From the IMG/VR virus record IMGVR_UViG_2718218133_000001: DNA of 64,000 bases; one strand, written 5' to 3'. Positions within the stretch are counted from its first letter, which is position 1; every line of letters begins with the position of its first letter. Shown here piece after piece: positions 10,751 to 35,633 of this stretch. The notes below the pieces were generated by a model. It was given only the letters and a program-made list of their open reading frames with translations. It did no database searches and was not told the origin of the DNA. Source of the DNA: a virus. Taxonomy: Duplodnaviria; Heunggongvirae; Uroviricota; Caudoviricetes. Made by a program: the position numbers and the translations under genes.

Positions 10751-11394
10751 GCAAGATTGATTATCAAAAGCTTCGTGAAATCGCTGAAAAAACAAAAATT
10801 GCTGGTGAAGCACCTGTAATGCCTTTCGATCAGCGAATTAATGCGCTTAACGATTTTATGAAGCACTTTTCGCCAGATATCGCGCTGGCATTGTTGGATG
10901 AACGGGAAAGAAACCAGCAATACATCAAACGCCGCGACCAGGAGAACGAGGAAATTGCGCTAACGGTAGGGAAGCTGCGTGTTGAGCTGGAAGGCAAAGA
11001 CAGCAAAATAGCCAATCTTACCGCCGAACGCGATGCTCTTCGTGAAGGTGAGATGGGCGACGCTAGGCATAGCAACACACGGGCCGCAGCTGATATCTAC
11101 TTCCAACTGGTCGAGGAGTGCGAAATTCCTGCTGGCGGATCTCTGGTCGAGTACGTTGACGATATGCGCGAGAAGCTGGAAGCCGCAGAGAAGCGCATTG
11201 CAGAGTTAGAAAGTGGTTCTCAGGCACAAAAGTTAGTTGAAGCAATCATTGTTGCGATAGAAAACGAACAGGAAAGGCTTTTTGATGAAGATTACCTAAT
11301 GGATTCGAAAGAATGCATTGACGTAATTCGTGAAGAAGTAAAGCGATGGAATGATTCCCGTGCCGCTGGCATTCGCATCAACGGAGGTGAGTAG
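10747..11394 (+). CDS. hypothetical coiled-coil protein (Ead/Ea22-like composition)
   Basis: 215 aa; E/K-rich helical sequence. Confidence 0.4.
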   Translation: MSKIDYQKLREIAEKTKIAGEAPVMPFDQRINALNDFMKHFSPDIALALLDERERNQQYIKRRDQENEEIALTVGKLRVELEGKDSKIANLTAERDALREGEMGDARHSNTRAAADIYFQLVEECEIPAGGSLVEYVDDMREKLEAAEKRIAELESGSQAQKLVEAIIVAIENEQERLFDEDYLMDSKECIDVIREEVKRWNDSRAAGIRINGGE

Positions 11395-11756
11395 TGCGTG
11401 TGGCATGTATCGGCTTGTTACCGTACCCGACTCGTTTTTGGGCTTCTGCGCTAATTGCAAAGCCACATGTCCTGATGGCTGACAACATCATCCCGGCACC
11501 AAAGCGCCGCCATACCGGTATTGCAGCGGCACGACGAGCAGCAAAGAGACGCAGGAGAGCAAAGCGATGAAAAACCGTAAAGCAAAGATTCTGTTAGTTC
11601 GTAGAAACGCTCCTGGCGTCTGGCAGTGGGTGAGACTCAGCAACCGACGGATGGGGTTAATGAAACATTACGGGATGATGGATTGTGGTTTTTGCAAAAA
11701 GCCCAGCGCGGCGCAAAACCGCTGGAAAAACCACTTGCGTACTAAAGGAGAGTGAT

Positions 11757-11966
11757 ATGGCTATCGCTGCAAGTTACACCATGCATCTCTATTGTGACTG
11801 CCGTCAGTGCACGGAAGGTGTATATCCAGTGCCAGACTTCGGTGAGTATATAGGTACGTCATGGGCTGGCTGTGCAAAAGAGGCGCGCAAGGATGGCTGG
11901 CGAATAAGCAAAGACAAAACGCGTGCTTTTGCGCCCGGGCATAAAGTTTTGAGGATTAACAAATGA
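11757..11966 (+). CDS. hypothetical Cys-rich small protein
   Basis: ATG with aaggag RBS inside the 93-aa track ORF; CDCRQC motif. Confidence 0.35.
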   Translation: MAIAASYTMHLYCDCRQCTEGVYPVPDFGEYIGTSWAGCAKEARKDGWRISKDKTRAFAPGHKVLRINK

Positions 11967-13240
11967 CCACTATAACCAAAGAGCGACTGCTGACAATCAA
12001 GCAGTGGCGCGAAACATACGGACCGGGTAGCAACGTTGTACTGCCAGCAGAAGAAGCGGAAGAACTGGCACGGATTGCTCTGGCATCGCTGGAAGCAAAA
12101 CCAATAGGTGCATTCCACATTGCAGAACAGCAAGTTGACGGCACAAGTGACTACCTCAAGGATGGAGAATGGCCTATTGATAATGGAATTATTGAGGTCT
12201 ACGCCGCTCCCCCCGTTCCAGTAGTACCGGAAGAAAAACCAATGCCTAACGCTCTAAGCATGCTTGAAAGAGAGATCACACAACTGATTGGTGATGCGCA
12301 GGAAGCCACTGTTACTGGCTATGAGTTAATCGCTGAAGCTTGGCGTTTGATGGATGGACAAGACCCTAAAACCAGCGATTGGCATAGCAAGGCTTCGAAG
12401 TATTTAAATTCCAATATTGTAGAAAAAGTTGATGATGACCGTATTGAGGCTGTTAAGGCTGTTTTGCGTAGACTGGCTGGCAACTCTCCGGTAATTCCAG
12501 GTGAGGTGCTGTCAGCAATTATGAAGGTTGCCAGGGTTCGTGCCGATTTCGATGATTTTGACGGTGACAGGCGAGGTGTCGGTGATTGTCTGGATGAGGC
12601 TGAGCAAGAGCTTATCGTTACCATTAACAAATATGCCAGTCAGTTGGCAGCAGAACCGATAGCGACTAATAACGTTCGAGAGCAGCAGACAGCCGTTCCG
12701 CCAGTTCCGGAAATACAGGATGATGTCGCGCAAGCAATTGAAAATCTCAAGCAGAAGTTAGTGGAATGCAATCGCTATAACTACTGCGCAGATGCAGTTA
12801 AAGGCGTAGAGGATGCCTGCCACGCTGCCATGCTTCAGGGTAGCCAACCTGTAAGCCAAACTTACAAGTTGCCAGTTAATACACCTTGCCAAGATGCGCC
12901 AGCCCATATCTGGCTGCAAACGGCTGGAGTATGGCCAGAAGATGGCGAGTTAAGCGAATTAACGTGGTGCAGCCACAATCAGCACCATGATGACACGCTA
13001 TATGTTCGAGCTGACCTTGTGAATGGCAACTCTCCGGTAACTCCGGATGGTTGGATAAGCTGTAGTGAGCGAATGCCCGCTCAAGATGATTGGATTTTAA
13101 TTTATTCAAAGCACGGTGAGTATATGGCAGGACAGGTGCAAGGGGAATACGTAGAGTTGAGCGACGGCACTTTATCGTGGTTAGGGAACGCCTTGTTCTG
13201 GATGCTGCTACCAGAACCTCCCCAGGAGGCAGGTCAATGA
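11963..13240 (+). CDS. hypothetical protein with DUF551-like C-terminus
   Basis: 425 aa; C-terminal PDGWISCSERMP..WILIYSK segment resembles the phage DUF551 module. Confidence 0.45.
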   Translation: MTTITKERLLTIKQWRETYGPGSNVVLPAEEAEELARIALASLEAKPIGAFHIAEQQVDGTSDYLKDGEWPIDNGIIEVYAAPPVPVVPEEKPMPNALSMLEREITQLIGDAQEATVTGYELIAEAWRLMDGQDPKTSDWHSKASKYLNSNIVEKVDDDRIEAVKAVLRRLAGNSPVIPGEVLSAIMKVARVRADFDDFDGDRRGVGDCLDEAEQELIVTINKYASQLAAEPIATNNVREQQTAVPPVPEIQDDVAQAIENLKQKLVECNRYNYCADAVKGVEDACHAAMLQGSQPVSQTYKLPVNTPCQDAPAHIWLQTAGVWPEDGELSELTWCSHNQHHDDTLYVRADLVNGNSPVTPDGWISCSERMPAQDDWILIYSKHGEYMAGQVQGEYVELSDGTLSWLGNALFWMLLPEPPQEAGQ

Positions 13241-21699: not shown

Positions 21700-22551
21700 C
21701 TATTGCGCGCTTTCGGGGTTGTCGTTTACTGGCTGCCCCTTCTTAGTTTTACGGCTGCGCGTAACTGATGCGGCTGATTTGACCTTTTTCTCTTCGCGAG
21801 TGATGGCAATTTGTTTTTTTACATTTTCAATATCTGCCAGGCGATATATTTTTGCCTGCGGCCAGCGGTCGCAGATGATCGGTTCTATAGAGTCATAAAG
21901 GCTAAATTTTGCTTTCTCGAATTCACCGTTGATGATGATTCCATCACGGAGAGTTTCATCGCAGATAAACACACCACACAGCGGCACATGGTAACTAACT
22001 GATTTACCATCATTGTAGTTAGGGCTACTGGAAATGTAATGGACGCGCAGCATTGTTTCGCTAAAGCCGTGTACACGCATACGGAATTTTTCATCCTCCG
22101 GGTACTGCTTCATTAGCTCTTTTGTTGCTTCCAGGTTCTCTATGTATTTCGCACTGTGCTCATTGATCCCCGCGCTTTTCTGGATGCGAATGTCCTTATC
22201 AATCAGATGAATAATGCGGCCAGCGGTCATGTTGACGCTGTTCACAGCTTCTGTCTGATAAGTTGTAACCTTACGCACACCGCGAAGGATGTTAGGCACT
22301 GGATATAAAATAGTCTTTGGGATATTGAGGTCTGGGTACTGTTCCAGTTCTCGCGCCATTAAAGTCCATTTATCAATTTCAGCCTGAATGCTGTCCGTTT
22401 CTTTGAACGGCAGAACGACAACCGGGCGTACAGGACGACCGTCGCTGGCGGCATCAACGTGTTGGGCGCGTGCAACAGCTTTTTTTAGAAAGAGATCCCT
22501 GAAGCTGACGAACTCCTGGTACAGTTGTTCGCCGTAGACATAATTTATCAT
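21700..22551 (-). CDS. c1: C1 repressor of lysis
   Basis: 283 aa starting MINYVYGEQLYQEF, recognised as P1 C1. Confidence 0.9.
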   Translation of the reverse strand: MINYVYGEQLYQEFVSFRDLFLKKAVARAQHVDAASDGRPVRPVVVLPFKETDSIQAEIDKWTLMARELEQYPDLNIPKTILYPVPNILRGVRKVTTYQTEAVNSVNMTAGRIIHLIDKDIRIQKSAGINEHSAKYIENLEATKELMKQYPEDEKFRMRVHGFSETMLRVHYISSSPNYNDGKSVSYHVPLCGVFICDETLRDGIIINGEFEKAKFSLYDSIEPIICDRWPQAKIYRLADIENVKKQIAITREEKKVKSAASVTRSRKTKKGQPVNDNPESAQ

Positions 22552-23704: not shown

Positions 23705-24736
23705 ATGTCCAATTTACTGACCGTACACCAAAATTTGCCTGCATTACCGGTCGATGCAACGAGTGATGAGGTTCGCAAGAACCTGATGGACATGTTCAGG
23801 GATCGCCAGGCGTTTTCTGAGCATACCTGGAAAATGCTTCTGTCCGTTTGCCGATCGTGGGCGGCATGGTGCAAGTTGAATAACCGGAAATGGTTTCCCG
23901 CAGAACCTGAAGATGTTCGCGATTATCTTCTATATCTTCAGGCGCGCGGTCTGGCAGTAAAAACTATCCAGCAACATTTGGGCCAGCTAAACATGCTTCA
24001 TCGTCGGTCCGGGCTGCCACGACCAAGTGACAGTAATGCTGTTTCACTGGTCATGCGACGGATCCGAAAAGAAAACGTTGATGCCGGTGAACGTGCAAAA
24101 CAGGCACTGGCGTTCGAACGCACTGATTTCGACCAGGTTCGTTCACTCATGGAAAATAGCGATCGCTGCCAGGATATACGTAATCTGGCATTTCTGGGGA
24201 TTGCTTATAACACCCTATTACGTATAGCCGAAATTGCCAGGATCAGGGTTAAAGATATCTCACGTACTGACGGTGGGAGAATGTTAATCCATATTGGCAG
24301 AACGAAAACGCTGGTTAGCACCGCAGGTGTAGAGAAGGCACTTAGCCTGGGGGTAACTAAACTGGTCGAGCGATGGATTTCTGTCTCTGGTGTGGCTGAT
24401 GATCCGAATAACTACTTGTTTTGCCGTGTCAGAAAAAATGGTGTTGCCGCGCCATCTGCCACCAGCCAGCTATCAACTCGCGCCCTGGAAGGGATTTTTG
24501 AAGCAACTCATCGATTGATTTACGGCGCTAAGGATGACTCTGGTCAGAGATACCTGGCCTGGTCTGGACACAGTGCCCGTGTCGGAGCCGCGCGAGATAT
24601 GGCCCGCGCCGGAGTTTCAATACCGGAGATCATGCAAGCTGGTGGCTGGACCAACGTAAATATTGTCATGAACTATATCCGTAACCTGGATAGTGAAACG
24701 GGGGCAATGGTGCGCCTGCTGGAAGATGGCGATTAG
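23705..24736 (+). CDS. cre: Cre tyrosine recombinase
   Basis: 343 aa, MSNLLTVHQNLPALPVDATSDEVRKNLMDMFRDRQAFSEHTWKMLLSVCRSWAAWC.. recognised as Cre. Confidence 0.97.
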   Translation: MSNLLTVHQNLPALPVDATSDEVRKNLMDMFRDRQAFSEHTWKMLLSVCRSWAAWCKLNNRKWFPAEPEDVRDYLLYLQARGLAVKTIQQHLGQLNMLHRRSGLPRPSDSNAVSLVMRRIRKENVDAGERAKQALAFERTDFDQVRSLMENSDRCQDIRNLAFLGIAYNTLLRIAEIARIRVKDISRTDGGRMLIHIGRTKTLVSTAGVEKALSLGVTKLVERWISVSGVADDPNNYLFCRVRKNGVAAPSATSQLSTRALEGIFEATHRLIYGAKDDSGQRYLAWSGHSARVGAARDMARAGVSIPEIMQAGGWTNVNIVMNYIRNLDSETGAMVRLLEDGD

Positions 24737-24786: not shown

Positions 24787-25098
24787 ATGCGGAAGGATTT
24801 CAAAATAGACGGAAAATATGTGGTGCTGTCTGTAAGCTCTCAAATTCAGTCACCATCTGTCATTGTCACCGTAAAGTTGAGCGATAGGATGCCTGATATC
24901 GACTCGATATCTGTTGCGTTCCCCGTTAAAAGCATGCGGAGTGCTGAACATTTTGTGATGAATGCAACGGAGGAGGAAGCGCGGCGCGGGCTTACTAGAG
25001 TGATGGTGGAATTTGGCGAACTCCTGGGTAAGGTAAACAATGCCCTTTCAATCAGTTCAGCAAGATCCAAAGCGTTAACAGCTTCCATGATGAAATAA
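24787..25098 (+). CDS. hypothetical protein (cra/hxr position)
   Basis: 103-aa ORF; no HTH recognised. Confidence 0.35.
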   Translation: MRKDFKIDGKYVVLSVSSQIQSPSVIVTVKLSDRMPDIDSISVAFPVKSMRSAEHFVMNATEEEARRGLTRVMVEFGELLGKVNNALSISSARSKALTASMMK

Positions 25099-25344: not shown

Positions 25345-25905
25345 ATGAAAACAATCGAACAAAAACTTGAACAGCGCCGCGAGTGGCAGAAGGCAGCCAG
25401 AGAACGAGCGATCGCTCGGCAACGGGAAAAGTTGGCTGACCCCGCCTGGCGAGAATCGCAATATCAGAAAATGCGGGATTCTATCGACCGCCGTATCGCT
25501 AAACAGAAAGAGCGCCCACCAGCCAGCAAAACGCGGAAAAGTGCGGTAAAGATAAAATCTCGTGGCTTGAAGGGGCGAACATCGACAGCGGAGGAACGGA
25601 GCATCGCCAATGCTCTTGGCGCTCTCCCCTGCATTGCCTGCTACATGCATGGAGTAATATCTGAAGAGGTATCTCTGCACCATATCTCCGGTCGTACCGC
25701 GCCGGGTTGTCACAAAAAGCAATTGCCCCTTTGTAGATGGCACCACCAGCATGCAGCACCGGCTGAAGTAAGAGAAAAATACCCCTGGCTGGTCCCTGTT
25801 CATGCCGATGGTGTGGTTGGAGGCAAGAAAGAATTCACCTTGCTGAACAAGTCAGAGATGGAGTTGCTGGCTGACGCCTATGAGATGGCAAACATCATGC
25901 ACTAA
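25345..25905 (+). CDS. ref: Ref recombination enhancement function (HNH endonuclease)
   Basis: 186 aa starting MKTIEQKLEQRREW; basic N-terminus; C-terminal Cys/His HNH-like motif (CIACYMHG..HHISG..CRWHH). Confidence 0.85.
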   Translation: MKTIEQKLEQRREWQKAARERAIARQREKLADPAWRESQYQKMRDSIDRRIAKQKERPPASKTRKSAVKIKSRGLKGRTSTAEERSIANALGALPCIACYMHGVISEEVSLHHISGRTAPGCHKKQLPLCRWHHQHAAPAEVREKYPWLVPVHADGVVGGKKEFTLLNKSEMELLADAYEMANIMH

Positions 25906-26056
25906 TAAATATATTATTTTTAATCTGAAATAATTGACAACTGACAAGTGACTTCAGTCAGAATCATCACATGCCCGGTACGGATGGATCCCTTTTCAAA
26001 TATTCCATGGACGGCACAGTCTGAGTACCGGGCGCTACCTTCAGTTGTATTGCTAA

Positions 26057-26082
26057 GCCGCCGCTGGTGGCTTTTCTTTTTT
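26057..26082 (+). terminator. possible intrinsic terminator after ref
   Basis: Short GC stem (agccgcc / ggtggct) followed by ttttctttttt. Confidence 0.4.
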
Positions 26083-26094
26083 GTAGGGGGCGCT

Positions 26095-26736
26095 ATGGAT
26101 AAGAAAATATGCGTTGTTTCGATGAGCGTCGGCAAACCGGCGTCAATGACTGCTGCATGGATCAACAATGAGCTAATAATGGCTGAGCGGACCAGCTACC
26201 CTGAACGCCGCCGCGATATGGAACTCCAGCTGCTGCGCGAATTGCGAGAAAAAGAGGAAAAGGGTTTTATCGTGCTGGTGGAAGAGGAAAACAGCTTTAT
26301 TACTGGTCGAGTTGGCCAGCGTGTAAGGTTGCGCGATCCCTTCATGAACGGCAGACCGGTACTGATTGAAGCAATGCAGATTTACAAGGAATTGGAACGC
26401 CAGAAAGCGATCAAGTTACCGCGCAAGGAATCCGGCAAATACATCCTTCACCAAAGCATCTTCGATTCCGAACACGATAAAAAAGGCGATGAATTTTTCA
26501 ACATCAACTGGAGCGAAATAACGACAGAACATGTTCTGACGTTACTATGTTGCTTTGCGACGGAATACAACAACGTTGCCAGCGCCGACTACATCAGGGC
26601 AATGGTTGGAGAAGTTGAGGCCCGCCAGGAACCATCGTTACTAAGCCCTCTGATTAACATAATTCGCGGAACCCAAACGCTGGCACAAAAACAGGTGCCT
26701 AAGGGAGTATTAACAGGAAAAGGAAATTATCTATAA
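26095..26736 (+). CDS. hypothetical protein (backbone-like GC; possibly the P1 mat equivalent)
   Basis: First ATG with AGGGGG RBS inside track ORF 25948..26736; composition like the P1 backbone, unlike the AT-rich gene downstream. Confidence 0.4.
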   Translation: MDKKICVVSMSVGKPASMTAAWINNELIMAERTSYPERRRDMELQLLRELREKEEKGFIVLVEEENSFITGRVGQRVRLRDPFMNGRPVLIEAMQIYKELERQKAIKLPRKESGKYILHQSIFDSEHDKKGDEFFNINWSEITTEHVLTLLCCFATEYNNVASADYIRAMVGEVEARQEPSLLSPLINIIRGTQTLAQKQVPKGVLTGKGNYL

Positions 26737-26792
26737 ACGTCAATGCATTAGGGTATACTTCTCCGTAGAACTATAAGTAAATGGAGTAAGTA

Positions 26793-28100
26793 ATGAGCGA
26801 ATATGTTGAGTTAGCATACGCTGCCGCTACAAGCAGGCTTTGTCTATTTACCGGGACTGGCTTTTCAAAGGCAGTCTCGAACGGTGAAGCTCCAACGTGG
26901 AAGGAACTATTAAAAAAAGTTTGCAGCAAAGTTCACAATGCCAAAAAGTTGGAAGACACGTTATTCCCTGATGATAAACCACCAGCACTGAGTCTTGAAG
27001 AAGCCGCACAAATACTATCTTTGAAGCTCAATATTGAGGGTAAGTCGATTTATGATGAAATTGTTGACATCATATCTCCAATTCAACTTGGAGAAGACAT
27101 ATCAAATATAAAAGATTTTTTCCAAAAAAACTCATTCCGTGTCATTACAACAAATTATGACAAGTTGGCTGAATGCTTGGTTGGAGATGAAAGTGTGCAG
27201 TCTATCACGCCCGGCCTGCCAATTCCAAAGTATCCATCCAAGGTGAAAATATATCATGTTCATGGTTCTATTGATTCGCCAAAAAATATGATTGTCACTT
27301 CAGATGATTACTTCAGATTTATAAATTCCGATACTTATTTTTCACGAAAACTTAGTACGATGCTGCATGAAAATACAGTTGCGATATTAGGGTATTCTTT
27401 AAGCGACACAAATCTTAAAGCAATTATAAATGACTATAAAAAATTTTCGAAAAATAATGCCCTGTGCTCTAATATCTTTTTGATATCTCGCAACAAAGTA
27501 AGTCAAGATATGAAGGATTATTACTTCTATTGCTTTGGTATAAGGGTAATTGACAATACAGAAATAGATTGTTTCTTTAGTCGATTAAGTTATAAGATTT
27601 CTCTCATTAAAGACATCATTGAAAGAGCGCGCGAAAATATCAGAAAAGTTGTTTCGGGGGCTTACACTTATAAAAATGAATATCTTAAATTAGAGGATTC
27701 ATTTTATCAAATTATATCATCAATTATATCGGAAGGTTTAGATTGGAATGATGATAAAGTCGTTTCTCTTTTCGAAAGGATAATAGAAAAAAAGAGAAAG
27801 TTAACAAGGAATAACGGAGCGTGGGAGCAATATGAACAGTTGGCAAAATGGCTTATATATTTTGGAAGCATCATAGAGGTTAGCAATACTAAGTATGAAA
27901 AAACATATTTAGACGCAGTTGAATACTCGATGGGTCATATGAGTAAAGAAAGGAATTGGGGAGTTTCTTGGCATGCTTACAGAGCTTGGGAAACACGATG
28001 GCCTGCAATAATTGCCTCAAATAGATTAATGATAAAAAACCACATTGAAACATTAGGCACCTTGAAGGACGCCAACCTTATAGTTAAGAATATAGTGTAA
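26793..28100 (+). CDS. stand-alone SIR2-like (SIR2_2/ThsA-type) putative NAD+-hydrolysing defence protein with uncharacterised C-terminal domain
   Basis: 435 aa; motifs in canonical order: LFTGTGFSKA, ITTNYDKL, YHVHGSIDSP, ILGYSLSDTNL; putative catalytic Asn and His present; GGAG RBS; clearly more AT-rich than the flanking genes. Confidence 0.8.
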   Translation: MSEYVELAYAAATSRLCLFTGTGFSKAVSNGEAPTWKELLKKVCSKVHNAKKLEDTLFPDDKPPALSLEEAAQILSLKLNIEGKSIYDEIVDIISPIQLGEDISNIKDFFQKNSFRVITTNYDKLAECLVGDESVQSITPGLPIPKYPSKVKIYHVHGSIDSPKNMIVTSDDYFRFINSDTYFSRKLSTMLHENTVAILGYSLSDTNLKAIINDYKKFSKNNALCSNIFLISRNKVSQDMKDYYFYCFGIRVIDNTEIDCFFSRLSYKISLIKDIIERARENIRKVVSGAYTYKNEYLKLEDSFYQIISSIISEGLDWNDDKVVSLFERIIEKKRKLTRNNGAWEQYEQLAKWLIYFGSIIEVSNTKYEKTYLDAVEYSMGHMSKERNWGVSWHAYRAWETRWPAIIASNRLMIKNHIETLGTLKDANLIVKNIV

Positions 28101-28116
28101 TTGTGGTCGATAAAAA

Positions 28117-28146
28117 TTTATCGGGCAGATAAAACTGCCCGATAAA
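28117..28146. terminator. bidirectional intrinsic terminator between convergent genes
   Basis: tttatcgggcag-ataaaa-ctgcccgataaa; 11-12 bp stem with A/T runs on both sides. Confidence 0.6.
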
Positions 28147-28395
28147 TTAATCAGCATTCAGGAGCAATGCGTTATCTATGATGATCTGCTCCCATTCTTC
28201 GAATGCCCGGTCACGGACGCCCTGGGGAACGCTGTTAGTTTTGAAATCGACGACCGTACGCCATTTCCCGTCCGGACGGTACATGCGCAGAGCTTTACTT
28301 CCCCCTTCCCTGCGCACCTCAACGTTATGCTTATCAGCAAACTCTTGTAATGCTCGTAGCGTCCCATGCTTTACTGTGTAGTATCGCTTTTTCAA
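28147..28395 (-). CDS. small protein, candidate Lxc/Bof by synteny and size
   Basis: 82-aa ORF (TTG start in track) downstream of the ulx-position gene and darB. Confidence 0.45.
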   Translation of the reverse strand: MKKRYYTVKHGTLRALQEFADKHNVEVRREGGSKALRMYRPDGKWRTVVDFKTNSVPQGVRDRAFEEWEQIIIDNALLLNAD

Positions 28396-28832
28396 GTTTT
28401 CTCTCCAGCCTGTGCTAAGGCTTCAACTTCCAAATCGTAAGACTCAAACTCATAGTCCTGGTCGTCAACCTCTTCAGGCACTGGCAGTAAATGCCAGGCT
28501 GAGTATATCTGACCATTATCAAAACGCTCCTGGCTGTAGAGCGTCGCAGCTATGAGCGTCAGCGCCGGGCGGTCATAACGGTAAATTTTGCGAACGTCAC
28601 GGTCAACGAGACGACCGAAATTACCATAACCGCGCTCCAGTAATAATTTTTTAATTTCCGGCCAGTATGGACCATAGCTGCGGTACAGGCGGGGATTTTT
28701 CAGTAATCGCCCGCGTAGCCCTGACAGGAAGAAATCAACGTATTCGTCTTCTGTCTTTCCTAACAACGCTGTACGGAGTACCGCCTCAAGATATGTTTTA
28801 TTCGGTTTTATTGTATCAGATAGTGTGGCCAT
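28392..28832 (-). CDS. hypothetical protein (ulx position, between darB and lxc)
   Basis: 146-aa ORF immediately downstream of darB on the same strand. Confidence 0.45.
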   Translation of the reverse strand: MATLSDTIKPNKTYLEAVLRTALLGKTEDEYVDFFLSGLRGRLLKNPRLYRSYGPYWPEIKKLLLERGYGNFGRLVDRDVRKIYRYDRPALTLIAATLYSQERFDNGQIYSAWHLLPVPEEVDDQDYEFESYDLEVEALAQAGEKT

Positions 28833-28865: not shown

Positions 28866-31800
28866 TTATGCGTATTGTTGGATGACGGCCAGAACGTCCG
28901 CCAGGTTGTGTTTTGTCTCGATAATCCACCAGTTACCCGGGAAATCGCTGTTCTTCGCCTTCGCTGGCAGCCAGCGAGCGCCGAATTTCGCCTTGATTGC
29001 GTCTTTCGCACGGAAAAGAACGCCTTTCATGCCTGAGGCTTCCTGAAGCCCAAATACCTCGCCAGCGGCGAATTTTGGTGCGTACATCATCTTCAGGTCG
29101 GCGGTGGATACGCGATAATTCAGACCAAGAGACTGAGCTATGCTGGTGGCATCACCCTGTATTGATGATAACTCTTCTTGTTTCTCGTTTCTGGCGGCAA
29201 TTTCTTCCTCCGTGATGTTGCCAAGGGCCAGGTTTATCCGATCAGCGTCGGCCTGTTTCTCTTCATCGGTGCGCCCGGCAAGAACCGTGTTAATTCTCTG
29301 CAATATCTCCACATGATTCTTACGCATGCTGAGCAATTCCGGCGTAACTTCGTTAAGATCCACCAGCCCAAGGATGGCAAGGTCGGAAAACATTGATACC
29401 AGGTTGTAGGTCATGCGATAGCTGAGTTGGCCATAGGCTGATGGCAACTGCACCGCATCCATTTTATAGGCATCCATAAATTTAGAGCCGTCGTTTACGA
29501 CATCCGCAATTGCCGGTGTGATTTTTCCTGTGGTGGCGGCCTCCCTGATTGCTGTTACCCACGATTGAGTCAGCGCGGAAACTGCATGATTCAGATTGGC
29601 TTTGCGTTCTGCTGCAATGCGCGCGCTTGCAGCGTCCATTGACTGTTTGATCTCGTCTTTATTGCTGTAAATGCCAATGGTGCCAAACTGTGCTGTGGTG
29701 ATCTCATAATCTGACGCCCGGAACTCATTGGTACCGAAAATGGCATTGGTGACTTCAAGTTCAGAATCCCCGTTACGAGTAGCCCCCTGGCTTGTTTTTT
29801 CCGGCATTCTGGCGATCGCATCCGCTATTTTCTCCTGAATTGCTTCAGGGGATAGCGTATCTCCGTATGACGCGATTACATCGCCATAATTGGAGCCAAA
29901 CAGTTCAACCAGGAATGTTTCTGCCGAACGGATCTGGCGGTTATTCCCTTCCGACATCATACCAAGCACCCATTTTGCAATTGACGACTTCAGCGCGCCG
30001 TCACGGCGATCCGGGTAAACCGCATGCTTCAGTGGGTCCGTATAGGTACCAACAAAATCAATGCTATAGCCTGACTCTGTAGTCTGAACGCCGTATGAGT
30101 CAGTGATTTTGATCATGCCGCGCTGCTGGAAACGGTAGAAATCGTCACAGGAAATGATGTCGTTAATCCCGGCGATGGAGACGCCGCCACTGATTTTCTG
30201 CATAACAGCATCTTCATCGGGAGTTACATCAACCTGTTTATCCAGCGTCTTCACATCCCAGTTACCCGATTTGGTGCCTTTGAAGGTAAAGATGATCTCC
30301 ACGTCTGCGCGCTGGCTGTCGAAGTCCAGCGACTTAATGCGAACGATATCACCGGCACAATCGTAGTATTGGCCTACACGCCATGAGCGATCGCCGATAA
30401 CAAGGAACTCACTCGCATGGTTAACCAGGTCAGGATCAACATCCAGAATGCCTTTATTTATTGCATCCTCCACCAGCGGGCGCAGGCGTTTGATATCCGT
30501 CGCGGCCTTCTGAGTACGGTTCAATAATTTCTCATAGCGGGAGATGGCTTGAGAGATATTAGCCTTGCGCTGAATGGCGTTTTTCAACGACGCGCGATAC
30601 TGTGCTAACAACATACGGTCTGTGTGATGGACGCTCCCCCAGCGGGCCTTCCAGTCTGCGTTATCAGCTGCTTTGGCCATTACCGCCTGTTTGAATTTAG
30701 CTACCTCGGCGGTGGTCTTTTCAAGTTCCGCTTTGCTTCGCTCTAATTCAGCGGTAAGTACCTCCACATCCTCGCCAGCTGCGTGCTGCGCCTTGATGTA
30801 GTTCTGAAGGTCGATAGTAGCCTGTTCTTTCTGGCGAGCGCGTTGCGCGGCTTTCGCCTTATCCATTTGAACCTGCATCATTGCCAGACGTTCGCCATCA
30901 TCCTTAGCGGTATACATCTGCATTTCGATCATTTCGTTGGCGTCGGCGTTCTCCATTTCAGACTTATCTGAGCGGAGGATATCGGAGATCCAGCCTGCTT
31001 TACGCTTCAGCGTCTTCAGTCGGTATTCATCGAAAGAACCCTTGCCGCAGTAGTAGTGAACGCGAACGCTTGCACGGTTGGAGCCAACTCGTGCACCGCG
31101 ACCGTTACGTTGTGCGATACTGGCTGGTGTCCACGGCAACGTCAGGTGGTGGATATCCGTCGTTCCTCGATGCAGGTTGATACCCACCTCTGCCTTTTTG
31201 TTGCAGATGATGATCGGAGTCCGGCCCTCCTGGAAGTCGGCTGCAATCTTTTCCAGACCGCCCAACGACATTTCATTTTGCTGCGCGATATAGGCGTCAT
31301 ACAGAGCCATTTGCTCGTTGTATTTCGCTATCTGTGCATCTGTTGGTTCATCCGGTAGCTCTTTCGGCGGTTTAACCGCTTTCAGTTTCTTACCGGTTTT
31401 ACCTGCCTCGGCAACCGTCTGAGCATTCAGGATCCCCACCTTTGAAGGTTCAAGGTTAAGAGCATTGCAGATAATGCGCTTGAGCTTCTGGTGTTGCGTT
31501 TTTTCATCGGTGAAGATGATTTGCTTACCTTCCTGGAAAAACTCCTTCAGCGTGGCAATCAGCTTCGCGTATTTGGGCGTAACGGGGTGAGTTACGGTCT
31601 GTTCGTCAATGCCAAACCTGGCCAGGCGCTTATTCACTTCCTGCTCGAACGCTTCCGGAACCTGCAACTGAATAAACTCGCCCTTATCTATCAGGGAGTA
31701 TTGCGATTGCTGCGTGATTGAATCATCACTGTCGTCGTCTTCGCTGGTGGCTTGTTTAGGCAAACTGTCCGCCAGCTGCTGCACCGCATCGGCGTACTCC

Positions 31801-34800
31801 GGCAGGAAACGATAGGTGATCCGGCGATAGTACAGGTCCATGTCAGTACATACGCGGTCCATATCCCTGATTATTGAGAAGATCGGACGGGCTTTCTCGT
31901 GCTCAATCACGCCGTCTTCATTGACCGAGGTCGTTACGCCATTGTTGGCTTTGGCCGCCGCTTCCGCCTGCTGACGTAATTCTTCATACGCCGCCAGTTG
32001 TTCTTCAGTAAGTGGTGCATCCTGCTGGTGCTCGTCCAGTTCCGGGATCTCCACGGTATCCTTAACGTCTTCCGCCGTTTTAAGCGTTGTCCAGCGATGG
32101 AATATGCCGCGCAGCGCATCAAGGTTTTCAAAGCCCACCAGCGCCATTTTTTCTTCAACTTCACCGCTGATTTTCTGTACCGTTTCCAGCCTGGTCTTGC
32201 CGAAGAATTTAACGAAGTCATCAGGACCGTAGATCCCCATCTTCTGCCAGTATTCCTTCGGCAGCACATGAGAAAGCATGTTGTATGCATCGATCGGGGT
32301 GTTAACGACTGGCGTTGCAGTCAGGAGAACCGGTCCGCGCCCACCATTCTTTTTCATCAGGTACGCGTTTTTAATTGCCATATCCCGCGCCGATTGCGCC
32401 ACCGCGCTGGTGGGCAGATAGGCCAGTTGTGACGCTTCGCGACCATTTTTATAGCTATTGCGGTAGTTGTGACCTTCGTCAGCGATCACACTATCGAAGC
32501 CCATATCCTCAAAGTACGGATACTTCTCTGCTTTTTCGGTGCCGGTATCTGAATACTCCGACAATACCCGGCGACGCGCGGCCTCTTTGCGGTGGGAGTC
32601 GGAGTCCATTGCGCTGGCTACGCGCCCGGCGGCAACGAAGTCATAAAGCATATCCTGTGCATGCTCATCTACGGTGTCATCACGTAGCGGAATGCGGGCG
32701 TATTGTTCTTTGGTAAACACGACTGCACGGTAATTTGAGTGCGGGATCGCGTTCATCCGCGCCGTGATAGTGGCTTCATCTGCCAGTTTTAGGGCATCGC
32801 GCATAACTGGAGTGCCATCAGTACCAAGAACAGGTTTACCGTTCTCATCGAGCACCGGCACCTGGCGAATCTGATCGCCATCCATCAGCACATCAAGACC
32901 GACGAACAGGTAGTTACTGAATGCCTCTTCACTCAGGAATTCTTTTGCTTCGTAATACCAGTTTTCCAGCACTGATTTAGGCACTACATACGCAGTACGG
33001 GTGGAGCGACCGTTCTCATAGTTGAACGCTTCAAGCGCCAGCGCGGTCGTAGTTTTACCCAGCCCGGTGCCGAAGCCCAGGATGCCGCGCCCATCTTCGG
33101 ACAGTCGGCGCACTTCGCTATTCTGGTAATCAAATGGCTGGCGCTTACCGCTTAATCCCTTCAACCCAAGCGGATCGCCAGAGTGTTCATACGGGATATT
33201 GCTATTGAACACATCGTTGTATTTGGCAACCAGTTCATCGTAGCGATCGTGCGTCTTGATCCACTTATTGAACTGGTCCTCAAGCAGTGCCATCTGCTCG
33301 CGGTAGCCGTTCGCCGTCGCGCTATCTTTGCCACCGATACGCGCACCATTGAGATACTTTTCCAGCTGTGCCGGGAACCCGGTCGCGTTTTCACCTGATT
33401 TACGGTCCCACTCGTAGCGGATCTCGCCTGTTTCTTTATCCTTGCGCTGGACAACACCGTATCGGTGCCCGACGAACAGACCATCACCACCGTGATAGGT
33501 GTCAGAAACCATTTCGTCGCCTTCCAGCTGCACTGACTGCACATAGCGAAGATCCGGATAGCCGTTTTCCTGCAAAAATTCCAGAATGACGGAACGGTCG
33601 AACCAACGGCTATTGAGCTTAAAGCGGATATTCTCTGCTGGCGTCTTGATGCGCTTCTCTTCGATCGCTGCCAGCTGATTAAGGACGTTGTTCTTTACTG
33701 GACCGTCGGGGAGTGTGGCAAGGAATTCCTGTTTTGGTGCCACTATCTCGTTAATGTCGCCGCTGGTGGCGCGGGCGAACGGAACAATCCCGCCATACGG
33801 TGAAACCGCAATGCCAGGGGTGCTGGCCAATAAATTAAGCAACTCTTCATCACTGGCTGGCAATTCGCCGGTAAACGCAAGGCGGAAATCATCGAGCTGG
33901 ATTGGATCGCGGGTAAGATCGCTATAGAGATAACGCAGGGTGTCCTGATAGCTGGTGGAGTCATAACTGGCGCTGGAATCATGCGTAACCAGCTTTCCTG
34001 TCAGCTCGTCAGAAATAGTGCCATCCAGCTTAATTGCACCACGGAAAGCAAACCAGGCGCGCGCACCGCTTCCCGATAATTTAGCTATCGGACCGCGACC
34101 AGGGTTACCAAAACGGTCAATCTCTGCCTGCAAACGGGATACCAGAGAAAGGCGCTGCTGTTCGATTTGTTCAGCACTATGCCCGGCGGCCTTCATATCC
34201 TGATATTCAATTAACATCCGGCCAATCATCGCCCCACGATACAAGCGTTCACGGTATTTTTCAGGCTGGCTGTTAATCCAGTCCACCAGCTGCACCATAT
34301 CGTCGCTGATTGATGTGGTGTACTTATCGCGGACGTTTGCCATCTGGGTAAATGTCATACCGAGACGGCCTTCTGTTGTAGTCAGGTTACGCTGAAGAGC
34401 CTCCCAGCTATCCGCGCCATAACTGGCAGCATCAATTTTAAGTTCCTTCCCGGCATCAGCTTCAATCCAGCGACCACCAGCATATTTTTGCCATACGCCA
34501 TTAATCAGGCGCATTTCCCCTTCACCAACAACGTCTGCGGTCGGTGACGGTTCAACCATATCGAGCAAAGACCAGTCGATACGGCTTTCGAAACGATGAA
34601 TCAGCTTCGCTTTAAGAGCCTGGTTATCAATCTGACCGTCGGCACGAACCTCAATACGCCCCTGGAAGCCCTTTTCCTGGGTGCCATGAACAAACCGGCG
34701 GCCATCCTTTTCAAACCACTTGCCAGAAATAAACGTTGGCCAAAGCACATTTGCCGATTCAAGAGTGCTTTCATCCACCAGGGGGATTTTCTCAGCCATC

Positions 34801-35633
34801 TCTGCCGGATGTTTGCGCATCAGCACCACATCTACGACCGTACTGGTCCCGTTTGCGTCAAAAGTACCGGTAGGCAAGCGGTGGGCACCAAGAAATTCAG
34901 CTTTCCGTGATAGGCGCAGGCGTAACCGCTTCATGTTTGAACCTGAAACAATGGACGGCGGCACAATCACGCACATGAATCCGCCTGGCTTTATCTTGTC
35001 CAGCATGCGGAGCATGAAGTAAGAACCCATGTCCGTTTCTTCTGCGTAAGGCTTATCGATGTTGCGTGTGTTATCACGACCGCCGAACGGAACGTTACCC
35101 ACAACATGGTCGAATGAATCGTTAGGTGTGCTTATAGCCAGCTGTTCGAACGGGGAAATCTGTACGCTGTCTTCCGGGTGTAACAACTGGTTTATACGAC
35201 CGGAAACACTGCTGATCTCAGTCGCGGTCATCACCGTACCAACCGGTTTTGTCTCATTAAAAACGCCGGTTCCCGCCGATGGTTCCAGAGTGTTACCTAC
35301 GTCCGCGCCGTAGAGCTTCATGATCTCCCAGACACCTTCAGCGATCGGCTTTGGTGTGTAATATTCGGAGACGGACCCGCCAATGCCGCCTTCACCGGTG
35401 TACCCAGCCAGGATCTGGCGCTGTTCATCTGTCAGTGTCGCGCCGTCCACCAGCGAATTAAGCAAATCTATCGCCTTCTGATTCGCCTCCCGGCGCAGTC
35501 GGTCATAGCTTTTGCCTTCCACCTTTTCCACGCCGTATTTAATCGGCGCTCGGTGAGATTTTATTGCCCTAATGTATTTCAATATTTCGCTGACACTTGA
35601 ACAGCGAAACACCCCCATAGATAGCTTGTTCAT
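28866..35633 (-). CDS. darB: DarB antirestriction protein (N6-adenine methyltransferase plus DEAH-like helicase domains)
   Basis: 2255-aa ORF, the length remembered for P1 DarB; MTase-like GNVPFG motif; helicase motifs GTGLGKT and VIADEGHNY. Confidence 0.9.
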   Translation of the reverse strand: MNKLSMGVFRCSSVSEILKYIRAIKSHRAPIKYGVEKVEGKSYDRLRREANQKAIDLLNSLVDGATLTDEQRQILAGYTGEGGIGGSVSEYYTPKPIAEGVWEIMKLYGADVGNTLEPSAGTGVFNETKPVGTVMTATEISSVSGRINQLLHPEDSVQISPFEQLAISTPNDSFDHVVGNVPFGGRDNTRNIDKPYAEETDMGSYFMLRMLDKIKPGGFMCVIVPPSIVSGSNMKRLRLRLSRKAEFLGAHRLPTGTFDANGTSTVVDVVLMRKHPAEMAEKIPLVDESTLESANVLWPTFISGKWFEKDGRRFVHGTQEKGFQGRIEVRADGQIDNQALKAKLIHRFESRIDWSLLDMVEPSPTADVVGEGEMRLINGVWQKYAGGRWIEADAGKELKIDAASYGADSWEALQRNLTTTEGRLGMTFTQMANVRDKYTTSISDDMVQLVDWINSQPEKYRERLYRGAMIGRMLIEYQDMKAAGHSAEQIEQQRLSLVSRLQAEIDRFGNPGRGPIAKLSGSGARAWFAFRGAIKLDGTISDELTGKLVTHDSSASYDSTSYQDTLRYLYSDLTRDPIQLDDFRLAFTGELPASDEELLNLLASTPGIAVSPYGGIVPFARATSGDINEIVAPKQEFLATLPDGPVKNNVLNQLAAIEEKRIKTPAENIRFKLNSRWFDRSVILEFLQENGYPDLRYVQSVQLEGDEMVSDTYHGGDGLFVGHRYGVVQRKDKETGEIRYEWDRKSGENATGFPAQLEKYLNGARIGGKDSATANGYREQMALLEDQFNKWIKTHDRYDELVAKYNDVFNSNIPYEHSGDPLGLKGLSGKRQPFDYQNSEVRRLSEDGRGILGFGTGLGKTTTALALEAFNYENGRSTRTAYVVPKSVLENWYYEAKEFLSEEAFSNYLFVGLDVLMDGDQIRQVPVLDENGKPVLGTDGTPVMRDALKLADEATITARMNAIPHSNYRAVVFTKEQYARIPLRDDTVDEHAQDMLYDFVAAGRVASAMDSDSHRKEAARRRVLSEYSDTGTEKAEKYPYFEDMGFDSVIADEGHNYRNSYKNGREASQLAYLPTSAVAQSARDMAIKNAYLMKKNGGRGPVLLTATPVVNTPIDAYNMLSHVLPKEYWQKMGIYGPDDFVKFFGKTRLETVQKISGEVEEKMALVGFENLDALRGIFHRWTTLKTAEDVKDTVEIPELDEHQQDAPLTEEQLAAYEELRQQAEAAAKANNGVTTSVNEDGVIEHEKARPIFSIIRDMDRVCTDMDLYYRRITYRFLPEYADAVQQLADSLPKQATSEDDDSDDSITQQSQYSLIDKGEFIQLQVPEAFEQEVNKRLARFGIDEQTVTHPVTPKYAKLIATLKEFFQEGKQIIFTDEKTQHQKLKRIICNALNLEPSKVGILNAQTVAEAGKTGKKLKAVKPPKELPDEPTDAQIAKYNEQMALYDAYIAQQNEMSLGGLEKIAADFQEGRTPIIICNKKAEVGINLHRGTTDIHHLTLPWTPASIAQRNGRGARVGSNRASVRVHYYCGKGSFDEYRLKTLKRKAGWISDILRSDKSEMENADANEMIEMQMYTAKDDGERLAMMQVQMDKAKAAQRARQKEQATIDLQNYIKAQHAAGEDVEVLTAELERSKAELEKTTAEVAKFKQAVMAKAADNADWKARWGSVHHTDRMLLAQYRASLKNAIQRKANISQAISRYEKLLNRTQKAATDIKRLRPLVEDAINKGILDVDPDLVNHASEFLVIGDRSWRVGQYYDCAGDIVRIKSLDFDSQRADVEIIFTFKGTKSGNWDVKTLDKQVDVTPDEDAVMQKISGGVSIAGINDIISCDDFYRFQQRGMIKITDSYGVQTTESGYSIDFVGTYTDPLKHAVYPDRRDGALKSSIAKWVLGMMSEGNNRQIRSAETFLVELFGSNYGDVIASYGDTLSPEAIQEKIADAIARMPEKTSQGATRNGDSELEVTNAIFGTNEFRASDYEITTAQFGTIGIYSNKDEIKQSMDAASARIAAERKANLNHAVSALTQSWVTAIREAATTGKITPAIADVVNDGSKFMDAYKMDAVQLPSAYGQLSYRMTYNLVSMFSDLAILGLVDLNEVTPELLSMRKNHVEILQRINTVLAGRTDEEKQADADRINLALGNITEEEIAARNEKQEELSSIQGDATSIAQSLGLNYRVSTADLKMMYAPKFAAGEVFGLQEASGMKGVLFRAKDAIKAKFGARWLPAKAKNSDFPGNWWIIETKHNLADVLAVIQQYA

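Follow-up and report, generated by a model that had tools for sequence, protein, structure and literature searches.

Among bacterial immune proteins with a SIR2 domain, DSR2 of Bacillus subtilis 29R (PDB 8WKT/8K98) is a single polypeptide that needs no partner gene, carrying an N-terminal SIR2_2 NADase with GxG, TTNYD and VHG motifs and, after it, all-helical repeats. A much smaller stand-alone protein, sole-Sir2 (~440 amino acids [aa]), converts nicotinamide adenine dinucleotide (NAD+) to ADP-ribose in vitro, and a homologue unlinked to CRISPR protects Escherichia coli from phages T2 and T4 (bioRxiv 10.1101/2024.12.27.630466). Here, we describe a SIR2-family gene in a 64,000-nucleotide (nt) stretch of DNA from a P1-like element of the Caudoviricetes (IMG/VR record IMGVR_UViG_2718218133_000001), referred to below as the window, in which the gene lies between the backbone genes mat and lxc. 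We consider it probable that this gene is a self-contained, one-protein anti-phage defense that behaves as a swappable cargo, or "moron," of the mat-lxc slot, and that its product is a compact DSR-like sensor-effector NADase.

If this is true, E. coli and a classic model phage have a native SIR2 immune protein that is very small and encoded by a single gene, which would make trigger identification, structure determination and domain swaps unusually tractable. Since P1-like elements also spread extended-spectrum beta-lactamase genes, their defense cargo is relevant to phage therapy as well. In the literature that we searched, no paper connects SIR2 to P1-like elements or mentions either accession number.

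The SIR2 protein and its two domains

The gene and the parts of its product are laid out as follows.

26793-28100, plus strand: SIR2-family gene, 435 aa, ATG start, product identical to WP_023156640.1
26793-27557, plus strand: N-terminal SIR2 (Rossmann-type) domain, residues 1-255, placed by Pfam PF13289, the DSR2 alignment and Foldseek
26853-26861, plus strand: codons of the GxG motif, within the SIR2 domain
27153-27155, plus strand: codon of Asn121, which aligns with DSR2 N133
27261-27263, plus strand: codon of His157, which aligns with DSR2 H171
27558-28097, plus strand: C-terminal all-alpha HEAT/ARM-like solenoid, residues 256-435, putative sensor or regulatory domain

An open reading frame (ORF) of 435 codons in DNA of 35% guanine plus cytosine (GC) is not expected by chance. 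The protein carries four motifs, in the order FTGTGFSK (G21-x-G23), ITTNYD (N121), HVHGS (H157) and GYSLSDTNLK, and in an alignment of 60 homologues the GxG, TTNYD, HxHGS and GYSLxDxNLK motifs were invariant. An initial annotation of the window, made from its sequence, had expected Pfam SIR2_2 (PF13289) over residues ~10-260. The match is there (84.4 bits against a cut-off of 24.5, E = 1.1e-23), but the profile spans residues 117-252 only, while the AlphaFold model (60 homologues; mean predicted local distance difference test [pLDDT], 83.5) places an alpha/beta SIR2 domain at residues ~1-255 and an all-helical domain at 258-435.

The best sequence matches in the PDB were DSR2 (E = 4.5e-10, residues 14-282), KomC of Kongming, and ThsA. 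N121 and H157 fall on the two DSR2 residues given above, and a deposited H171A mutant chain has alanine in the histidine column. When the full model was searched with Foldseek, DSR2, ThsA, KomC, Avs5 and SIR2-HerA came out on top, with E values of about 1e-7 to 4e-5 for DSR2, ThsA and KomC and target-normalized template modeling scores of about 0.55-0.6 on SIR2-only chains; the top PADLOC matches were PDC-S25, ThsA, SIR2-type LmuA and Dsr1/2. The initial annotation had claimed an intact 435-aa ORF at 26793-28100, four SIR2_2/ThsA-type motifs in order, and a SIR2 domain with a putative catalytic Asn and His. The ORF and all four motifs are present, and the nearest neighbors of the domain in both sequence and fold are DSR2, ThsA, KomC and Avs5. 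Computational comparison thus shows a predicted SIR2 domain of the defense NADase type with its catalytic apparatus intact, comprising the NAD-binding GxG and the Asn and His that serve as catalytic residues of DSR2 and ThsA.

The C-terminal ~180 aa are modeled confidently as a HEAT-like alpha-solenoid. This domain has no Pfam match and no PDB sequence match, DSR2 chains included, and it is neither SLOG nor Macro nor any other known nucleotide-binding fold. What had initially been described as an unrecognized, non-SLOG C-terminal stretch of ~170 aa is, in the model, an alpha-solenoid that matches no named family. With a profile of the domain, only 96 matches were found among 1.84 billion representative proteins. 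The full-length ones are 406-480 aa long, with the domain at ~255-450 and SIR2_2 in front of it in every one checked, while the shorter ones are fragments and two weak matches, to glycoside hydrolase/lectin proteins, are spurious. Other architectures for the domain were ruled out among these representatives, where it occurs only behind SIR2_2. Given that all full-length matches are fused to SIR2_2, we conclude that the C-terminal domain is exclusive to this SIR2 family.

From its sequence, its model and its analogy to characterized relatives, we infer that the 435-aa protein may deplete NAD+ and protect against phage. In the uninfected lysogen, the enzyme would be held in an inactive, autoinhibited state. 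Upon infection, the solenoid would recognize a phage-made protein or mediate an oligomeric switch, and the SIR2 domain would then hydrolyze NAD+ to ADP-ribose and nicotinamide. The resulting loss of NAD+ could collapse metabolism and abort the infection, sparing sister cells that carry the plasmid. DSR2 follows the same logic with a long helical-repeat region that binds the phage tail tube, and the protein proposed here would do likewise at less than half the size.

Named SIR2 systems and the search for a partner

The initial annotation had found no match between the gene and Thoeris, DSR1/DSR2 or SIR2-HerA, and no TIR, HerA or Argonaute gene nearby. Profile and context tests bear this out, and none of the three genes occurs in the cassette or its flanks. 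ThsA of Thoeris resembles the protein in size (~476 aa), in its N-terminal SIR2_2 NADase and in its catalytic motifs. The Thoeris assignment was nevertheless rejected: the C-terminal domain is an alpha-solenoid instead of SLOG or Macro, and the neighbors are mat, lxc, ulx and darB, with no adjacent TIR ThsB gene. DSR2, at ~1000 aa, has a long helical-repeat sensor where the present protein has a solenoid of ~180 aa; the NCBIfam equivalog model NF041819 scores 22.5 bits against a cut-off of 1400, and the two C-terminal domains share no detectable sequence similarity. For DSR1 (~1200 aa), the equivalog model NF041818 scores 26.2 bits against the same cut-off of 1400.

The remaining candidates fared similarly. 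SIR2-HerA (Nezha) and SIR2-pAgo (SPARSA) were set aside, there being no HerA helicase, short Argonaute or APAZ in the cassette or flanks, and the PADLOC SIR2 models of these two systems matched residues 27-133 with E values no better than 1e-5 to 1e-7. For Lamassu, the LmuA profile was matched only at positions 14-238 of 433, and no SMC/AAA (LmuB) gene is adjacent. PDC-S25, a single-gene SIR2-containing candidate that is itself uncharacterized and was mentioned once in passing in the literature searched, gave the best PADLOC match (E = 1.4e-26); only profile positions 127-289 of 517 were matched, however, leaving the C-terminal domain unaligned. Since the defining feature of each of these systems (Thoeris, DSR1, DSR2, SIR2-HerA, pAgo-SIR2, Lamassu and PDC-S25) is missing here, we rejected membership in all of them and place the protein in the wider SIR2_2 defense NADase superfamily.

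Sole-Sir2 is the closest precedent in scale. It too stands alone, is of similar size (435 versus ~440 aa) and has a DSR2-like Sir2 domain, and its activity makes NADase defense by a stand-alone protein of ~440 aa plausible (10.1101/2024.12.27.630466). It was described, though, with a C-terminal Sir2 domain behind an N-terminal part of unknown nature and inside type I-C cas operons (10.1101/2024.12.27.630466). By that description it differs from the present protein, which has an N-terminal SIR2 domain and no cas context that we could see; the divergent ~440-aa family members that we inspected were on short contigs or on contigs without cas genes. There is no conceptual surprise in a single protein that depletes NAD+ through SIR2, as DSR1/2 and sole-Sir2 have established this, and the family was possibly anticipated by the sole-Sir2 preprint, with which we compared it by description alone. 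Novelty is lower than the initial annotation assumed: the gene is already annotated as a "SIR2 family protein," and a functional sole-Sir2 of similar size has been reported.

Relatives of the protein are widespread. A search of 5.8 billion protein clusters recovered 678 of them. Nearly all of the top 120 have a length of 431-437 aa and are 52-62% identical over their full length. About 52 full-length members occur in GTDB representative genomes, mainly of Gamma-, Beta- and Alphaproteobacteria, with a few in Actinobacteria, Desulfobacter, a cyanobacteria-related metagenome-assembled genome (MAG) and Treponema. The protein also falls, over its full length, into the PHROG family phrog_7567, annotated as of unknown function. 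We found the gene in no deposited phage genome by megablast or tblastn, where matches reached at most 27% identity.

Could such a protein depend on a partner encoded elsewhere? We considered the possibility that it is an effector requiring a distant partner, either TIR/ThsB-like or a nucleotide-modifying enzyme, and that its C-terminal domain binds a small-molecule signal, as in Thoeris and Kongming. Its SIR2 domain does resemble those of the signal-activated ThsA and KomC, although its C-terminal domain is an alpha-solenoid and not a known nucleotide-binding fold. To look for partners, we clustered the ORFs found within 6 kb on either side of 52 members from different species. No partner was conserved across these 52 loci, the largest shared cluster covering 4 loci at varying distance and strand. 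HsdR and resolvases recurred as neighbors; we rejected them as partners and took them as context. This search covered the immediate neighborhood only, which leaves some room for a remote partner. Yet no gene co-occurs with the family in that interval, and the cassette travels between P1-like plasmids, prophages and chromosomes as one gene, so we regard partner dependence as improbable. The lack of a common partner in 52 loci argues that the family is a true single-gene unit traveling with mobile and defense-island DNA. The stand-alone character first ascribed to the gene is upheld on both counts, since its own neighbors are unchanged P1 backbone genes and the homologous loci in other species share no partner.

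The individual neighborhoods are varied. In E. coli, the homologue directly follows the integrase and ends a prophage, and homologues adjoin a resolvase in three further genomes. In Massilia and in a Treponema MAG, they adjoin a type I HsdR gene (positions 6792-9965 of locus L041 and 8476-11616 of locus L071) and appear to be embedded in or beside a type I restriction-modification (R-M) locus. The Pantoea sp. Mb-10 homologue sits directly downstream of an HD + HD_assoc gene resembling a dGTP triphosphohydrolase (positions 4628-5857 of its locus); this enzyme type is a known nucleotide-depleting defense, and the locus may be a small defense island. In Paracidovorax avenae, a gene pair on the opposite strand, about 1 kb downstream of the homologue (positions 8335-12278 of its locus), codes for an AAA_23/SMC_N fragment of 189 aa and a protein of 1135 aa that has no Pfam match; this pair may be another defense system.

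The exchange slot between mat and lxc

The gene order in this part of the window is c1, cre, c8, ref, mat, SIR2, lxc, ulx, darB, and all but the SIR2 gene belong to the P1-like backbone.

26737-28146, plus strand: cargo cassette bounded by the stop codons of mat and lxc, 1410 bp, 35% GC
25948-26736, plus strand: mat, left slot border, 94-97% nt identity to P1, RCS47 and SJ46
28147-28395, minus strand: lxc, right slot border, 97-99% nt identity to P1, RCS47 and SJ46
28392-28832, minus strand: ulx, 97-99% nt identity to P1, RCS47 and SJ46
28866-35633, minus strand: darB, which follows ulx
21700-22551, minus strand: c1
23705-24736: cre
24787-25098: c8
Between c8 and mat: ref

In blastn comparisons, homology to P1, RCS47 and SJ46 ends precisely at the stop codon of mat (26736) and is regained precisely at that of lxc (28147), and this break defines the cassette listed above. 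The same interval measures 6.3 kb in P1, where it holds EcoP1I res and mod together with IS5 (~5.1 kb without the insertion sequence), and 39 bp in RCS47. In SJ46, it holds a RelA/SpoT-family gene (positions 2349-3470 of the SJ46 locus) in the same position and orientation as the SIR2 gene, and that gene encodes CapRel-SJ46, an experimentally validated fused toxin-antitoxin defense (PMC9712102). PADLOC 2.0 lists CapRel-SJ46 merely as the candidate PDC-S33. CapRel and EcoP1I thus share the mat-lxc position with the SIR2 gene, and CapRel shares with it the fusion of an effector to a phage-protein sensor in one polypeptide. The proteins themselves are unrelated, however, with CapRel acting through tRNA pyrophosphorylation and EcoP1I through type III restriction.

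The region is known as "variable region 1 (res-mod)" of P1-like phage-plasmids, and its low GC content has been remarked upon (PMC9603915). The SIR2 gene has 34.9% GC, with a GC fraction at third codon positions (GC3) of 0.33, compared to about 46-52% GC in the flanks and GC3 values of 0.53 in mat and 0.58 in darB. We searched PLSDB by megablast with the slot and its borders, which yielded 708 P1-like plasmids, and typed the cargo in an evenly spaced sample of 60. The slot held a SIR2 gene in ~10 of these, an EAL protein, often with a helix-turn-helix (HTH) protein, in another ~10, a RelA/SpoT (CapRel) gene in ~8, a YaaC-family protein with a 103-aa protein in ~7 and a DUF2971 protein in ~7; GNAT was found twice, PIN once and an empty slot once, while ~12 slots were too large to bridge, as with R-M. 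At least 8 cargo types therefore occupy the slot among the P1-like plasmids. The initial annotation had placed the SIR2 gene in the res/mod slot of a P1-type defense hotspot and had read its AT-richness as a sign of horizontal acquisition. The exact borders and the P1 interval confirm the position, the cassette is compositionally foreign, and the survey shows that the mat-lxc slot is a hypervariable hotspot holding known defenses, EcoP1I in P1 and CapRel-SJ46 in SJ46. With the present SIR2 gene as a third example, the res-mod region can be viewed as an exchange slot for defense cargos.

Several of the other cargos (the 346-aa YaaC-family protein with its 103-aa neighbor, EAL with HTH, DUF2971, GNAT and PIN_12) are candidates for new defense or counter-defense functions. 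PADLOC assigned CapRel to PDC-S33, DUF2971 to PDC-S31 and the PIN cargo (PIN_12) to PDC-S34, and it returned no match for the YaaC, EAL, HTH and GNAT cargos.

An identical or 99% identical SIR2 gene is present in ~40 E. coli IncY-type plasmids, and two more alleles, whose products are 86% and 59% identical to this protein, lie at precisely this position in other P1-like plasmids. The 86% allele is nucleotide identical over the first ~400 nt of the gene and divergent after that, which points to a recombination mosaic with breakpoints inside the gene. Its identity is 66-83% in the C-terminal domain versus 86-100% in the SIR2 domain, and across the family the majority-residue fraction is likewise 0.67 in the C-terminal domain versus 0.78 in the SIR2 domain. 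If the proposed function is correct, the three alleles, being most divergent in the C-terminal domain, could have different trigger specificities, and three natural alleles in an identical genomic frame would be a ready-made specificity series. The plasmid pRHB16-C13_3 has the 86% allele and, just upstream of the SIR2 gene in place of mat, an inserted Tn3 transposon of the TnAs3 family that bears a class 1 integron (intI1, dfrA12; positions 1-5518 of the locus). The slot border is thus a landing site for resistance transposons as well.

A bolder version of the proposal, which we advance only tentatively and think somewhat doubtful, is that the solenoid of 180 residues acts as a new, minimal sensor of phage proteins and gates the NADase directly, making this the smallest DSR-like sensor-effector; that the alleles at this one locus recognize different triggers; and that the slot is the P1 counterpart of the P2/P4 hotspots, with further undescribed defenses among its other cargos.

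Alternatively, the gene may be decaying or silent, a passenger that at present serves no function in this element. Its low GC content, the lack of a promoter that we could find and the frameshifted SIR2 copies seen in a few plasmids would all fit such a fate. A passenger of this kind would hardly be expected, though, to keep a 435-codon ORF intact in AT-rich DNA and 99-100% conserved in ~40 plasmids, with catalytic motifs that are invariant family-wide. The gene is also far from rare: ~17% of the sampled P1-like plasmids carry a SIR2 allele, as do 133 of the 5426 RefSeq complete E. coli genomes (~2.5%), with 134 of 136 places on plasmids. We therefore consider a passenger role very improbable.

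Chemistry, expression and terminators

The protein, WP_023156640.1, has been labeled "SIR2 family protein," as is the gene in more than 100 plasmid records. The sequences around the gene that bear on its expression are as follows.

26737-26792, plus strand: leader of 56 nt; ribosome-binding site GGAG at 26783-26786
26754-26759, plus strand: weak -10 element TATACT with a poor -35, the sole promoter-like element of the leader
28115-28148: hairpin AAUUUAUCGGGCAG-6 nt-CUGCCCGAUAAAUU, with a 14-bp stem of -21 to -24 kcal/mol

Several observations weigh against a self-contained NADase defense. Consensus and relaxed scans found no convincing sigma-70 promoter in the leader or the 3' end of mat, so that expression in the lysogen is only putative, and read-through from a C1-controlled or late mat promoter is possible. 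Residues 202-225, near the active site and the invariant GYSLxDxNLK, have pLDDT values below 50 in the model. The SIR2 fold allows several chemistries, deacylation and ADP-ribosylation included, and RefSeq currently names the product "SIR2 family NAD-dependent protein deacylase."

The last two points would also favor a different activity, that of a sirtuin that modifies proteins, by deacylation or ADP-ribosylation, in a regulatory or toxin-like capacity such as plasmid stabilization. Protein-deacylase sirtuins typically have a zinc ribbon with CxxC pairs, and the 435-aa sequence contains no CxxC pairs able to build one; the canonical sirtuin model PF02146 is likewise unmatched at E <= 1 in a Pfam scan of the protein. 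All significant sequence and fold neighbors are instead defense NADases. As for plasmid stabilization, the cassette holds no antitoxin-like gene, and P1 backbones already have phd-doc. Together, these results make a protein-modifying sirtuin quite unlikely.

The promoter scans bear on another alternative, in which the protein serves the lytic program of the phage-plasmid. The gene would then be co-transcribed with mat from a C1-repressed or late promoter and become active after derepression or upon entry into a new cell; possible roles include remodeling host metabolism, excluding competitors during lytic growth and countering NAD-dependent host immunity. The SIR2 gene has the same orientation as mat and begins 56 nt after it, with no recognizable promoter or terminator in between. 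Upstream of mat, at 25896-25912, there is also a C1-operator-like site, CATGCACTAATAAATAT, with 4 mismatches to the C1-operator consensus. The site lies where P1 has Omat, and its conservation there would suit a lytic role. Were the SIR2 gene transcribed together with mat, C1 would control it too. Yet a NADase active in the lytic cycle of P1 would harm P1 itself, and most homologues of the protein are encoded on chromosomes or at the ends of prophages, and not within a late operon. Moreover, CapRel-SJ46, in the same position and orientation, acts as a lysogen defense (PMC9712102). We thus regard a role in the lytic program as unlikely, and a defense that operates in the lysogen remains our preferred reading. 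All three SIR2 alleles share the 56-nt leader and their first codons at 100% identity; slots that hold CapRel, R-M genes or nothing lack the leader.

Downstream of the gene, the initial annotation had described a bidirectional terminator. The part of this claim that concerns the minus strand is convincing, while function on the plus strand appears weak: a U-run follows the hairpin at 28115-28148 on the minus strand only, in the direction of the lxc, ulx and darB transcripts, and the plus-strand tail reads UAAUCAGC. The hairpin is accordingly terminator-like for lxc-ulx-darB and only weakly so for the SIR2 transcript; a consensus scan called it as a terminator on neither strand. No Rfam family reached its gathering threshold anywhere in the window (1-64000).

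We compared the hairpin regions of four slots:

28101-28148 of the window
2238-2276 of locus L015
3471-3507 of locus L016 (SJ46)
7306-7346 of locus L002

Each cargo variant, the empty slot included, has a different GC-rich hairpin directly downstream of the lxc stop codon. The terminator of the lxc-ulx-darB operon thus seems to be exchanged along with the cargo.

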